Origin: Dehalococcoidia bacterium
GTDB taxonomy: Bacteria > Chloroflexota > Dehalococcoidia > UBA2979
Assembly: GCA_964291495.2 (NCBI GenBank)
Contig: OZ219871.1
Location: 1,120,001 to 1,184,000 of the forward strand
DNA length: 64,000 nucleotides
Reading direction: 5' to 3'
Below the pieces are notes generated by a model. That model worked only from the letters and a program-made list of their open reading frames with translations. It had not been told where the DNA came from and did not search any database. Position 1 is the first letter of the stretch. Every line of letters starts with the position of its first letter. A program made the position numbers and the translations under genes. This document shows, piece after piece, positions 275-49,012 of the stretch.

Positions 275-395
275 CGAAGGCACTCGACCGCGCTTGAACG
301 CCCGACCGCGCCCCGATTCATCCTACCCTCGATCAACGCCCCGACTACCCTCGATCATCCAGCCACGTACGCGCGCGACCCGCGAGGCCCAGACA

Positions 396-2330
<1,935 letters not shown>

Positions 2331-16912: not shown

Positions 16913-16988
16913 GCCCGAGTGGCGCAATGGCAGCGCAGCCGATTTGTAATCGGCAGGTTAGCGGGTTCGAATCCCCTCTCGGGCTCCA
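16913..16988 (+). tRNA. tRNA-Thr(TGT)
   Basis: Acceptor GCCCGAG/CTCGGGC, anticodon arm GCCGA-TTTGTAA-TCGGC, GTTCGAATC, CCA. Confidence 0.95.
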
Positions 16989-17047
16989 CTCACTCCTGCG
17001 GGGTTGTGTGGAGGCGCGCGGGGTGAGGATGCCGGCCGTCGACGCCC

Positions 17048-17133
17048 GCAGGGGTGGGAGAGTGGTTAATTCCAGCGGTCTGTAAAACCGCCGCCTTACG
17101 GCTACGCAGGTTCGAATCCTGCCCCCTGCACCA
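17048..17133 (+). tRNA. tRNA-Tyr(GTA)
   Basis: Acceptor GCAGGGG/CCCCTGC, GCGGT-CTGTAAA-ACCGC, long variable arm, CCA. Confidence 0.95.
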
Positions 17134-17199
17134 GTCGCACGCGCCACCGAGGCTGGGAACCAGGGCACCGCCGCAGAGTGGCGCCAGAAGCGGAGATAT

Positions 17200-17275
17200 G
17201 CCCTCATAGCTCAGTCGGTAGAGCGCGTTCTTGGTAAGAACGAGGTCAGCGGTTCAAATCCGCTTGAGGGCTCCA
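17200..17275 (+). tRNA. tRNA-Thr(GGT)
   Basis: Acceptor GCCCTCA/TGAGGGC, GTTCT-TGGTA-AGAAC, GTTCAAATC, CCA. Confidence 0.95.
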
Positions 17276-40157: not shown

Positions 40158-40232
40158 GCCGGTGTAGCTCAGAGGTAGAGCAGCTGTTTCGTAAACAGCA
40201 GGTCGAGGGTTCGAATCCCCCCGCCGGCTCCA
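40158..40232 (+). tRNA. tRNA-Thr(CGT)
   Basis: Acceptor GCCGGTG/CGCCGGC, GCTGT-TTCGTAA-ACAGC, GTTCGAATC, CCA. Confidence 0.95.
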
Positions 40233-45836: not shown

Positions 45837-46244
45837 GTGGGCCGGTCCCGGCCACTCGACGTACAGGCTGCGGCGCCCTCGGCCGCGCGCCCCTGCGAGC
45901 GCCTGCGCCGGCGGCGCGACTTCGAGGCGCTGATGCGCGGACGAACGGGCGCACCCCCGGCGCGGCACCGCCTGCTTACGCTGCGCGCGAGGCCGAACGG
46001 CCTCGAGCAGTGCCGCGTCGGCTTCGCGGTGGGGCGACCGGTGGGCGGCGCCGTGGTGCGCAATCGCGTGAAGCGGCGGCTGCGCGAGATCGTGCGGGCG
46101 CTGCCCCTGGCGCCCGGCCACGACATCGTCATCGCCGCCCGGCCGGCGAGCCGCGAGGCGAGCTTCGAGGAGCTGCGCAACGCCCTCGCGAGCTGCGCGA
46201 GGCGCGCCGGGCTTGCGGGCCATGCCGCGGGCGGAAGGGGCTGA
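45837..46244 (+). CDS. rnpA: Ribonuclease P protein component (start uncertain)
   Basis: [30 protein letters not shown] (RNR motif). Confidence 0.93.
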
Positions 46245-46248
46245 GGCC

Positions 46249-46527
46249 GTGCTGAAGCCGTCCAGGCTGCTGCTGCGGCTGATTCGCGGCTACCAGCGGG
46301 CGATCTCGCCGCTGCTGCCGCCCGCCTGCCGCTACGCGCCGACCTGCTCGCAGTACGCCCTCGAGGCGATCGAGGCGCACGGAGCGCTGCGCGGCGTCTG
46401 GCTGGCGCTGAGGCGGCTGAGCCGCTGCCACCCCGGTCGCAAGGGCGGCTACGACCCGGTTCCCGGCCGGGACGGCGACCCTCGCACCGCCCGAACGGAC
46501 CTCCCGAGGGACGCGAAGGCGAGTTGA
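46249..46527 (+). CDS. yidD: Membrane protein insertion efficiency factor YidD
   Basis: [22 protein letters not shown]...GGYDPVP. Confidence 0.95.
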
Positions 46528-46539
46528 GACGATAAATCT

Positions 46540-47766
46540 ATGCATAACGAACCTCATGCAAGAGTTTTGAGCAGAATCGCAATCCGAGGCCCTGCAGCCT
46601 CTCCCTCCTCTGCTTATGTTTCACGTGAAACATCCATCGTTCGGCGAGGCCGTTCCAGACCGCTCACTGCGCTCCTCGCGCTGCTCCTCGTGCTGCCGCT
46701 GCTCGTCGCCTGCACGACCGACGTGAACAGCCCCGACGGCTGGGCCGGACCCGTCAGGGCCCGCGAATTCACCATCCTCCAGGAGAAGCCCGGCGAACTC
46801 GTCGCGGTCCGCCTCGGCAGTACCGACAATCCCGGCACCCCCGACACCGACGAGCGCGTCGCCTGGCGCTTCCCGGGCGACGCCGATGTCGACCTCGACG
46901 CCGTCTACGCCGACCCGATCCTCGATGGCAACACGCTCTACGTCGCGGGCTACTCGGGCGAGGTCGTCGCCCTCGACCTCTCGTTCGAGCCGCCGCGCAT
47001 CATCTGGCTGCGCGATCTCGACGAGACCATCATCGCCACGCCCGCATTCGACGGCCAAACGCTCTACATCGGCACCGAGGCGGGCGCGATCGTCCCGATC
47101 ACCGTCGCCAGCGGTGCCGTCGGGGCGCCGATTGCACAAGCAGGAGAGCGGATCTGGTCCGAGGTGCTCCTCGAGGACGGCGCGCTCTACGTCGCGGCCC
47201 TCGACAAGCGCGTACGGGCGATCAGACCCGGCGGCGGCACGATCTGGGCCCAGCCAACGGAGTTGAGCGGCGCCGTGCCCGGCGACACGGCGATCGAGGG
47301 CGGGCTGCTGGTCGTCGGCTCGTTCGATCGCCGGCTGCACGCCCTCGACGCCGATACGGGCGCCGAGGAATGGGCGTTCGACGGCGACGGCTGGTTCTGG
47401 GCGCGCCCCGTGATCGCCGGCGACACCGTCTACGCCGCCTCGACGCGCGGGAGCATCTACGCCCTCAACGCGGGCGGCGGCGACTCCAACCGCGTGCGCT
47501 GGCACTTCAACCAGCTCGACAGCGAGATCCGCGCCGCGCCCGTCCTCGCGCGAGGCGTCCTCGTCGTGGCCGCCGAGGAAGCGACGATCTGGGGCATCGA
47601 TCCCGCCACCGGGGACCTCCGCTGGAGCGCGCCGCTGCCCGGCCACCGTTTCCTCGCCAACCCGCTCGTGCTCGACTCGAGCCTGATTTATGCAACCACA
47701 CGAGGCGATCTCGTCGAGATCGACCCGCAATCCGGCCGCGCCGCGATCCTCTACGAGCGGCGGTGA
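46540..47766 (+). CDS. PQQ-like beta-propeller (BamB-like) lipoprotein (start uncertain)
   Basis: Hydrophobic signal ending LLVAC; repeated LYVA/ALD...G..W propeller motifs. Confidence 0.88.
   Translation: MHNEPHARVLSRIAIRGPAASPSSAYVSRETSIVRRGRSRPLTALLALLLVLPLLVACTTDVNSPDGWAGPVRAREFTILQEKPGELVAVRLGSTDNPGTPDTDERVAWRFPGDADVDLDAVYADPILDGNTLYVAGYSGEVVALDLSFEPPRIIWLRDLDETIIATPAFDGQTLYIGTEAGAIVPITVASGAVGAPIAQAGERIWSEVLLEDGALYVAALDKRVRAIRPGGGTIWAQPTELSGAVPGDTAIEGGLLVVGSFDRRLHALDADTGAEEWAFDGDGWFWARPVIAGDTVYAASTRGSIYALNAGGGDSNRVRWHFNQLDSEIRAAPVLARGVLVVAAEEATIWGIDPATGDLRWSAPLPGHRFLANPLVLDSSLIYATTRGDLVEIDPQSGRAAILYERR
46617..46632. promoter_or_regulatory. parS: parS centromere site
   Basis: Perfect palindrome TGTTTCACGTGAAACA; parAB lie ~4.3 kb downstream. 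Confidence 0.93.
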
Positions 47767-47800
47767 GGCCAATGATGAGCGGGGAGACGGCGGAGCGACG

Positions 47801-49012
47801 ATGACCGACACCTGGCAGCTGCTGCTGGAGACGCCGCTCGTCAACCTCATGGTGCTGCTCAGCGTCGTCTCGTTCGGCTCCTACGGGGCCGCGATCCTCG
47901 TCTTCACCGTGATCACGCGCGTCGTCACCTTCCCGCTGACCATGCGCACGCTGCGCGCCACGCGTGGACTGCAGGAACTGCAGCCCGATATGCAGGCGAT
48001 CCAGAAGCGCTACTCCGACCCGAAGCGCCGCTCCGAGGAGCAGATGAAGCTCTACCGGCGCAAGACACTGGCTTGCGAGGACGGCGGTGTCGCCGCGGCG
48101 GTCCTCGGATACCCGGTTGAGTGCGATTGGAAGGGTCAGGACACCGACAAGGGCGAGCTGTTCGAGCAATACGCCACGCACCTCGAGCGCATGCACGGCG
48201 TGCGCGTCTCCGACGCCTCCGCGCGGCAACTGAAGCGCGCCCGCAAGGCGATGAGCGGCGGCATCAACCCGATCGGCTGCCTCGGACCGCAGTTGGTCCA
48301 GCTGCCGATCTTCATTGCGCTCTTCTCCGTGATCCGGCTCACGCTCTCGCAGTCGCCCGAGGACATCCTCGAGCTCTCGGACCGGCTCTACGACTACGGA
48401 CCGCTGCAGAACGCGATCCCGCTCGAGACCAGCTTTCTGGGCATGAACCTCTCCGCGAACGGCAGTTTCATCCTGGTCATCGTCATTTTCTGCTCGATGT
48501 GGCTCACGCAGCGCATCTCCTCGTCGCGCGCGGCGGCGCAGGCAGGGAGCCAGCAGGCGCAGACGCAGCAGATGATGCAGTGGATGCTGCCGCTGATGTT
48601 CGGCTGGTTCGCGATGTTCGTGCCGGCCGGCCTCGGCCTCTACTGGGCGGCGAGCACGCTGATCGGCCTGGTGCTGCAGTGGGTCTTCGTCGGGCCGGGC
48701 GACTTCACCTGGGGATCGCTGATCCCCGGCTTCGTGCGGACCCGGATCGGGCTGCCCGCGGAGATCGAGACGCGCACCGAACGCGAACGACGGCTCGAGC
48801 GCGAACAGCGCCGGGCCGCCTCCGGCGACCCGGAGGACGATACGGACGGCGCTGAGCCGCCGGGCGCAGACGGCGCCGGCGGAGACGGGGGAGGACGTGA
48901 TGAGCGTCGAGGAGGTAAGCGGAAGGACGGTCGAAGACGCCGTCGAACGGGCTCTCGCCAGGCTCGGGGTGGCTCGCGATCGCGTCGACGTCGAGGTAAT
49001 CCGCGAGGGTAA
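47801..49012 (+). CDS. yidC: Membrane protein insertase YidC/Oxa1 (short type) with ~65-aa insertion
   Basis: SYGAAILVFTVITR..TFPL, LQPDMQAIQKRY, MKLY...GINPIGC, VQLPIFIALF, PAGLGLYW. Confidence 0.93.
   Translation: MTDTWQLLLETPLVNLMVLLSVVSFGSYGAAILVFTVITRVVTFPLTMRTLRATRGLQELQPDMQAIQKRYSDPKRRSEEQMKLYRRKTLACEDGGVAAAVLGYPVECDWKGQDTDKGELFEQYATHLERMHGVRVSDASARQLKRARKAMSGGINPIGCLGPQLVQLPIFIALFSVIRLTLSQSPEDILELSDRLYDYGPLQNAIPLETSFLGMNLSANGSFILVIVIFCSMWLTQRISSSRAAAQAGSQQAQTQQMMQWMLPLMFGWFAMFVPAGLGLYWAASTLIGLVLQWVFVGPGDFTWGSLIPGFVRTRIGLPAEIETRTERERRLEREQRRAASGDPEDDTDGAEPPGADGAGGDGGGRDERRGGKRKDGRRRRRTGSRQARGGSRSRRRRGNPRG

Follow-up and report, generated by a model that had tools for sequence, protein, structure and literature searches.

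YidC is a universal and essential membrane protein insertase, and its short form is known from Bacillus halodurans YidC2 (3WO6 and 3WO7), alongside the E. coli core structure (3WVF). Here we analyse the yidC gene in a 64,000-nucleotide stretch of DNA from a Dehalococcoidia bacterium (contig OZ219871.1, positions 1,120,001 to 1,184,000; this whole stretch is called the window, and positions are counted within it), whose product has the groove arginine of the first transmembrane helix (TM1) and the basic C-terminal tail in common with the short form and is predicted to resemble it in the helices CH1 and CH2 of the cytoplasmic C1 hairpin and in TM2 to TM5, and whose gene order, rpmH-rnpA-yidD-...-yidC-jag, is likewise the same. 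However, the short-form YidC lacks 65 residues that the product of the window carries between CH2 and TM2, and the other YidCs examined, including five split or oversized YidCs of the phylum, read LY(K/R)E-x-G-x-NP at this junction. The 65 residues are homologous to DUF1059 (PF06348), and a DUF1059 domain within the cytoplasmic hairpin of YidC was found described nowhere in the literature searched. A sequence-only reading of the same stretch had known of no description either, which agrees with our full-text searches, where no domain inserted in the C1 region of YidC appeared, supplements and subscription journals lying outside their scope; the public records of the carriers are named just 'YidC/Oxa1 family membrane protein insertase'.

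The described systems that come near to this arrangement do so from several sides. Stand-alone DUF1059 proteins, for example the genome's own P0045 and the 'CDWK' type (L038, P0072), have in common with the insert the C/C/H/H residues, a KT-x-x-C start, CDW(K), E-L, H-x4-H and a basic end, but they are free proteins of ~55 residues, whereas the insert lies within a membrane protein and has 9 extra residues between its cysteines. The C-terminal SEC-C domain of SecA (PF02810) is likewise a small Cys/His metal-binding module on a protein-export component, an analogy of design, and in E. coli it binds SecB and ribosomes (10.1101/613315). However, SEC-C is a terminal tail of other motif and length with no sequence relation to the insert, and PF02810 had no match in the YidC or the insert at E<=10. 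In the Oxa1 superfamily, the H2/3 hairpin equivalent to CH1/CH2 is hypervariable, and its elongation in GET1 is regarded as an adaptation for GET3 recognition (PMC8675477). The GET1 coiled coil and the tethered hairpin of EMC3 represent helix elongation or retethering in eukaryotic paralogues, whereas the YidC described here is bacterial and has a foreign, presumably globular domain inserted where CH2 has its base. Whole domains have likewise been taken up by YidC loops in the E. coli P1 domain (PMC5766551) and in a PBP_like_2 insert of another YidC (L065), but their position is extracytoplasmic, either ahead of the core or following TM2, in contrast to the DUF1059 insert in the essential C1, predicted on the cytoplasmic face.

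The DUF1059-type insert between CH2 and TM2

The features of the gene are as follows; the mechanical open reading frame (ORF) of yidC runs from 47690 to 49012 on the plus strand, that is, it opens upstream of the ATG at 47801.

47801..49012, plus strand: yidC coding sequence, stop included; homologues start at the ATG at 47801 (MTDTWQ...); PF02096 5.2e-40.
47801..48061, plus strand: N-terminal helix, TM1 with R41, and hairpin CH1/CH2 ending MKLYRR; from 3WO6 chain positions 13-87, E. coli YidC 332-414, hydropathy and charge.
48062..48256, plus strand: 65-codon DUF1059-type insertion (KTLAC...RKAMS), residues 89-153; from the sister-genus gap, hhalign and the broken Pfam profile.
48074..48076, plus strand: Cys93 codon, candidate metal ligand 1; TGC in 18 genomes, TGT in 1.
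48089..48115, plus strand: 9-residue hydrophobic loop VAAAVLGYP between the cysteines, lineage-specific and absent from stand-alone DUF1059; a gap in hhalign and BLASTP.
48122..48124, plus strand: Cys109 codon, candidate ligand 2, within conserved ECDWK; TGC in 19/19.
48179..48181, plus strand: His128 codon, candidate ligand 3; CAC in 19/19.
48194..48196, plus strand: His133 codon, candidate ligand 4; CAC in 17 genomes, CAT in 2.
48197..48256, plus strand: basic C-terminal segment GVRVSDASARQLKRARKAMS, net +5, leading into TM2; from charge count, and aligning to the C-terminal part of DUF1059.
48257..48700, plus strand: YidC core TM2-TM5 from GGINPIGC; from Pfam profile positions 62-160, the 3WO6 alignment and hydropathy.
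48701..49009, plus strand: long arginine-rich C-terminal tail, predicted cytoplasmic by charge; ~113 bases at its end are shared with the beginning of jag.

The product is a 403-residue membrane protein (P0001 in the residue numbering used here), and its identity as YidC, as previously read from the sequence, is borne out by PF02096 (137.5 bits against a cut-off of 35, in two stretches owing to the insert) and by TIGR03592 (143.7 bits against 84.3, E 6.6e-42). R41, the conserved hydrophilic-groove arginine in the first core helix, is invariant in 36 and in 34 aligned sequences, its counterpart in 3WO6 being the arginine of '...ILIRLALLPLT'. E. coli YidC 332-414 is matched by residues 6-88, and 3WO6 chain positions 104-234 by residues 154-298; the alignment to solved YidCs on both sides of the insert, together with hydropathy peaks and loop charges, fits a predicted five-helix core with the CH1/CH2 hairpin. 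These alignments place the insert at the CH2 end of the C1 hairpin, just before the 'NP' that opens the next transmembrane helix, in agreement with the earlier placement in the C1 loop. The net charges (C1 +6, the loop after TM2 -5, residues 300-404 of the tail +10) and the hydropathy fit a cytoplasmic side for the insert, and homology and charge together predict that it is cytoplasmic.

The boundaries are given by the sister genera. In five of them, within the same family, the YidC matches P0001 residues 5-88 and 154-404 in segments that abut in the DNA, with a junction reading MKLY(K/R)E-(H/S/A)-GV(N/S)PLGCLG and no intervening sequence, and MAFFT opens one single 65-column gap opposite KTLAC...RKAMS. 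Therefore, the insertion comprises residues 89-153, at 48062-48256, and it interrupts the Pfam YidC profile at positions 61-65. It sits in frame between the end of CH2 (MKLYRR) and the start of TM2 (GGINP), and the translation reads ...SEEQMKLYRR-KTLACEDGGVAAAVLGYPVECDWKGQDTDKGELFEQYATHLERMHGVRVSDASARQLKRARKAMS-GGINPIGC.... The string quoted in the sequence-only reading and its in-frame insert of ~65 residues are thus found exactly, as 65 codons, but the start it gave, 48058, is one base out of frame: reading from there meets a stop, and the codon frame begins at 48059. The A/T-ending codons that it noticed are a weak signal (G+C at third codon positions, GC3, 0.86 against 0.95 in both flanks), while overall GC is the same, 0.65-0.70, and shows no compositional sign of recent transfer in the insert.

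Conservation was followed in two sets of carriers, namely the inserts of 19 genomes of the genus (alignment A2) and an alignment of P0001 with 35 of the 42 proteins, all YidC, that a word-indexed search of 5.8 billion proteins returned for query residues 80-165 (P0004, P0013, P0015, P0016, P0029, P0032 and P0034 were left out for brevity). The pattern C-x15-C-x18-H-x4-H is verified in the insert, and all four candidate ligands are present in 19/19 genomes, with synonymous codon variants (TGT 1/19 at C93, CAT 2/19 at H133) and zero replacements; C93 and H133 are invariant in 36/36 aligned carriers, C109 and H128 in 35/36, the exception being P0044. In P0044, known from one contig, ~35 residues of the insert stand in another frame before the frame returns, by two compensating shifts, probably a sequencing error. 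The pattern and spacing given earlier stand, and the candidate ligands, whose variation among carriers would have refuted the earlier reading, are conserved. The stand-alone DUF1059 proteins (29 from genomes of the same class, alignment A3) have C6, C13, H32 and H37 as their sole invariant columns, and in a joint 48-row alignment of these with the 19 inserts the sole invariant columns are insert C5, C21, H40 and H45, which are C93, C109, H128 and H133 of the YidC. Among the 19 genomes K89, T90, G97, A99, D110, W111, E120, Y125, L129, R131, V135, D139, A140, A148 and R149 are also invariant, and G97 and A99 of the hydrophobic loop remain so in the 36 carriers. In CH2 just before the insert, carriers consistently differ from non-carriers by Q versus T at position 82 and R versus E at 88. 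The insert is split in charge, its N-terminal 45 residues being net -5 and its last 20 net +5.

That the insert belongs with DUF1059 is carried by the profile-profile comparison. With hhalign, the inserts and the stand-alone proteins match with 96.8 % probability and E 2.8e-10 over 53 columns, insert positions 1-64 against family positions 3-55, with one large gap formed by the 9 insert residues between the cysteines. With a hidden Markov model (HMM) of the inserts, 12 of the 29 stand-alone proteins score higher than any of 580 shuffled controls. By BLASTP, one insert matches a 'CDWK'-type stand-alone protein with 33 % identity (E 8e-8) and another pair gives 1e-5, both pairs having KT-x-x-C ... 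CDWK ... H-x4-H in common, and the match to the genome's own P0045 reaches 6e-4. Against PF06348 itself, the window insert scores 15.8 bits (E 0.017), below the 21.1 cut-off; a genome-wide search of the genus matched the insert in 19/19 at E<=1, with 5 copies reaching 21.1 bits and 14 below, and 27 of the 36 carriers match at E<=10 (best 5.1e-4). The cysteines are 15 residues apart (16 in one genome), while in the stand-alone family the spacing is 6-8 residues in 27/29 proteins and 1 residue in two, and the insert is an internal domain of a 403-residue protein, not a free-standing one of ~55-75 residues. Because the cysteine spacing, the size and, for the window copy, the Pfam score depart from the family in this way, we file the insert as a divergent, embedded homologue, an atypical member confirmed by sequence comparison as a whole DUF1059 domain plus a hydrophobic loop. 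The likeness to DUF1059 pointed out in the sequence-only reading accordingly holds for homology and is qualified by the sub-threshold window copy and the 9 extra residues.

Other families gave no counterpart. Neither the insert nor the DUF1059 profile found anything better than E 1.1 among solved structures when searched by sequence (PDB), and an NCBIfam scan of the insert gave no match. The classical C2H2 zinc finger has the pattern C-x2-4-C-x12-H-x3-5-H, and the insert is unlike it save for the His-His spacing; no zinc-finger Pfam family matched.

Distribution, origin and selection

The insert is restricted to one genus. It is present in 19/19 of its genomes, in 0/6 genomes from other genera of the family and in 0/16 genomes from other families of the class; the alignment of related YidCs, to which the earlier reading had left the question of its spread, gives the insert throughout the genus and a gap in the sister genera. 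When the family was sampled more widely (81 genomes, 21 genera), the YidC profile proved to be split at positions 61-65 in 8/8 genomes of the genus; among the 73 genomes of other genera, 69 have one YidC match each (66 full-length and unsplit, 3 cut by contig ends), and 4 (52-86 % complete) are without a YidC match. No insert at the CH2/TM2 site was found in a phylum sample of 200 further genomes, all with YidC, which includes G338, G207 and G320 (flagged unpublished and counted only there). Two YidC matches occur in 18/200 of this sample, 11 in family f80, 2 in f91 and 5 as paralogues on separate loci (G216, G220, G197, G235, G256). The splits examined, in three f80 and two f91 genomes, fall in the extracytoplasmic loop that follows TM2 (profile positions 91-104), and long single-match YidCs of families f72 and f83 have the canonical LYKE-x-G-x-NP junction.

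This outer loop has acquired material of its own. A ~270-residue insertion matching PBP_like_2 (PF12849, 4e-13) lies in the loop after TM2 of the YidCs of L065 (gene at 304-1956, minus strand), L066 and L067, and the Chloroflexota family with this YidC shows two Pfam matches in 11/11 sampled genomes. The same loop holds ~250 residues without a Pfam match in one further family (gene at L068:1336-2823, plus strand) and ~100 cysteine-containing residues in another (L075, L077). It looks like a hot spot for domain accretion in Chloroflexota.

Searches on a larger scale returned to the same genus. When 185,579 species, each represented by one genome, were scanned for the pattern, 16 loci emerged, all in Dehalococcoidia or Chloroflexi metagenome-assembled genomes and at coordinates matching genus genomes already found. 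HMMER of the insert profile over 1.84 billion representatives gave 3 YidC carriers and 4 matches to repeat proteins. The latter, P0053-P0056, match in 4-7 short stretches, the two inspected (P0053, P0055) are repeat proteins, and the matches are regarded as spurious. As far as the collections show, the insertion would represent one event in the ancestor of one uncultured sponge-associated Dehalococcoidia genus. In a domain tree, the inserts form a cluster of their own with a long stem (length 1.18), which is in keeping with a single origin, and the tree resolves no donor; the long-branch row L058 falls among them. A family-wide search with the insert profile for a donor found no close stand-alone relative (best 20.6 bits, partial), and tblastn of the insert against a plasmid collection gave no match. 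P0045 was considered as the nearest relative and rejected, since the insert profile scores it 2.6 bits.

The genome's stand-alone P0045 (55 residues; L001:1495-1659, contig C5) lies ~530 kilobases (kb) from yidC, beside a nitroreductase-family gene; a gene of its type occurs in 7/19 genus genomes, and ~6 kb from yidC in G011, G012 and G014. A search for longer DUF1059-bearing proteins found two, neither of them YidC, which is weak evidence. DUF1059 also occurs in tandem, as two domains in one ORF (L051:1495-1920, plus strand) and as two adjacent matches in G163 contig C46, and P0072 has an N-terminal 'CDWK'-type DUF1059 followed by ~180 residues without a Pfam match.

The genome has no YidC other than the one with the insert, and purifying selection acts on the insert. 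When the 19 genes are compared in 171 pairs, the median ratio of nonsynonymous to synonymous rates (dN/dS) comes to 0.24 in the N-terminal part and 0.25 in TM2-TM5, against 0.435 in the insert and 0.885 in the C-terminal tail. At GC3 95 % these values are probably inflated in absolute terms, so that the ranking alone is meaningful. Within the genus, the YidC core diverges down to 70 % identity and the inserts to 45 %, without loss or decay. The two Pfam YidC matches of this genome (93.7 % complete) are halves of one gene, and a single YidC is found likewise in 7 other genus genomes of the family sample; being the only homologue in a genome of this completeness argues that the YidC of the window is functional as an insertase.

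Independent DNA contains the insert as well. The stretch is present in runs of 18 studies, mostly labelled sponge metagenome, and one contig of 4620 letters, from a different study than the likely source, extends over the entire gene with 66 base differences; it has a single insertion or deletion, of 3 letters near 48898, beyond the bounds of the insert. In a third run, a contig identical over 48127-48642 bridges the 3′ junction. The earlier reading would have given way if the insert were missing from raw reads; it is present in the contig of another study. A contig of 1358 letters from run X3 passes from 48057 to 48259 with 6 other letters in between; it looks like the yidC of an insert-less relative in the same sample, its shorter side of 27 letters being too short to count as evidence.

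The yidC locus

The gene stands in the classical order rpmH, rnpA, yidD (46213-46527), a PQQ/BamB-like beta-propeller gene (46540-47766; PF13360 6.1e-30), yidC, jag/khpB (from 48897), a pfkB kinase gene and parA. The beta-propeller gene lies directly upstream of yidC in 18/18 genus loci and also in 5/5 sister-genus loci; therefore, standing beside the insert-less yidC as well, it has no link to the insert. At its 3′ end, yidC runs into the first part of jag/khpB and overlaps it by ~113-116 bases in different frames (48897-49012), with GTG 48897 or ATG 48900 as the start of jag and a GGGGGAGG-like site upstream of it. Both frames are kept in relatives, where the Jag N-terminus aligns from locus position 2351 and yidC ends at 2463-2466 (L006, L010), and the database protein P0021 is a YidC-Jag fusion made by a frame shift at this overlap. 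Elsewhere the window holds a tRNA cluster Thr(TGT)-Tyr(GTA)-Thr(GGT) at 16913-17275 and a separate tRNA-Thr(CGT) at 40158-40232, and the window has no further Rfam match at or above the gathering score.

Proposed working of the insert and competing explanations

Based on these findings, we consider it reasonably probable that a DUF1059 domain was inserted once at the CH2/TM2 junction, has been kept by selection and acts as a docking or positioning surface. First, the insert would fold in the cytoplasm round one metal ion, most simply Zn2+, through C93, C109, H128 and H133; that a Cys2His2 set alone is invariant in a ~55-residue domain suggests a metal site holding a small fold together, and metal binding of DUF1059 is likewise read from the C/C/H/H pattern. 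The module could then sit at the base of CH2, beside the cytoplasmic mouth of the hydrophilic groove, with its basic C-terminal segment along the inner membrane surface leading into TM2, and with its acidic N-terminal half and hydrophobic loop widening the C1 platform at the groove mouth. The C1 loop of E. coli YidC is essential and has been cross-linked to SRP (signal recognition particle), FtsY, SecY and SecE (PMC5766551), and substrates are believed to meet it first (PMC8595059, PMC7618853). Since the C1 platform contacts substrates, SRP, FtsY and SecY in E. coli, an insert there would add a docking or positioning surface, for a targeting factor or a substrate class, and not a catalytic unit.

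Several observations weigh against this proposal. The docking role would be drawn from likeness to E. coli C1 and to GET1, and the window copy scores below the Pfam cut-off with a cysteine spacing foreign to the family. The insert has a dN/dS ~1.8x the value for the YidC core, as would suit a domain with no more to do than stay folded. In the literature searched, DUF1059 is called a family of unknown function or merely listed, and PF06348 goes unmentioned. No shared partner recurs beside the 29 stand-alone DUF1059 genes, and the neighbours seen repeatedly were BTAD regulators at 3 loci, enoyl-CoA hydratase at 2 and DUF362 at 2 near-identical loci (85 of the 95 flanking ORFs from 30 loci were considered; the 10 omitted mostly overlap the DUF1059 gene). 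Finally, contigs of an RNA library (run X23) leave 48085-48371 uncovered, the one at the 5′ junction extending only ~5 letters past it, so that no RNA lies over the insert; a gap of this kind proves nothing.

The main competitor, for which we see perhaps one chance in a few, is that the domain is a passenger without a role of its own, tolerated at a permissive junction; selection would keep the fold and the ligands since an unfolded 65-residue loop would harm the sole essential insertase. The higher dN/dS of the insert (0.435 against 0.24-0.25 for the core) speaks for it, as do the domains gained by other YidC loops of the phylum, which imply that YidC tolerates insertions, and the fact that no loss of the SecA metal-binding motif co-occurs with the insert (PF02810 in 19/19 genus genomes and 33/48 others). 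However, retention in 19/19 genomes, while the core fell to 70 % and the inserts to 45 % identity, goes against a passenger, as do the invariant non-ligand residues (K89, T90, G97, A99, D110, W111, E120, Y125, R131) and the carrier-specific changes T82Q and E88R, which adjoin the insert in CH2. Compensation for a lost SecA motif was also considered and rejected, the motif being present in all 19 genomes of the genus; in this genome it lies at G000:C5:1264596-1264649, in an 866-residue frame. The SecA of the genus genomes keeps its SEC-C motif, so the insert is no replacement for it.

The metal-binding and regulatory reading of the insert, towards which the earlier reading leaned, is plausible from its sequence. 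In its specific form, which we hold to be unlikely, occupancy or oxidation of the Cys2His2 site would fold or unfold the module, shift the C1 hairpin and so gate the insertase. Four invariant C/C/H/H residues at a mechanically critical junction would suit such a switch; a precedent exists in the small metal-binding domain of SecA, which binds SecB and ribosomes and for which iron is a proposed ligand in vivo (10.1101/613315), and a DUF1059 gene occurs in a [NiFe]-hydrogenase cluster, adjoining metal-insertion genes (PMC9561532). However, Cys2His2 sites are mostly structural, and the neighbourhoods of yidC and of the stand-alone DUF1059 genes give no pointer to metal or redox control. A broader idea, in which the C1 hairpin has gained either a switch that senses metal or redox state or a dedicated receptor for some targeting or assembly factor of the lineage, is still improbable, though a little less so.

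Convergence of an unrelated insert upon the Cys2His2 pattern is very improbable: apart from the sub-threshold window copy and the unfamiliar cysteine spacing, it could appeal to the insert profile, which returned no stand-alone DUF1059 at E<=0.001 from 1.84 billion proteins with HMMER, but the end-to-end hhalign match with the four C/C/H/H residues in register, the five copies above the Pfam cut-off, the 12 stand-alone proteins that beat the shuffles and the BLASTP pairs sharing their motifs all count against it. The earlier reading, which would have fallen had no DUF1059 likeness been found, is supported on this point. An artefact of assembly or annotation, for which nothing was found save the frame-shifted stretch within the insert of P0044, is already refuted by the insert's presence in 19 genomes, some closed or nearly so, in 42 proteins of several sources and in an independent contig.

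The docking reading, and the observations beneath it, bear on the least understood essential part of YidC, the C1 hairpin, of which it is written that 'its exact role is unknown' (PMC5766551). The scope is narrow, one genus of uncultured sponge-associated Dehalococcoidia; there, a foreign domain, presumably folded, between CH2 and TM2 of the only YidC would be a natural test of the geometric freedom of this junction and of docking to it. For DUF1059, the signature is sharpened to four invariant Cys/His residues, and the family may gain its first functional context, at the cytoplasmic face of the membrane-protein insertion machinery. If the insert were indeed a sensor or a dedicated receptor, gating or re-addressing of the universal insertase in these sponge symbionts would follow metal supply or oxidative state, and DUF1059 would have its first function, as a portable Cys2His2 module for sensing or docking.

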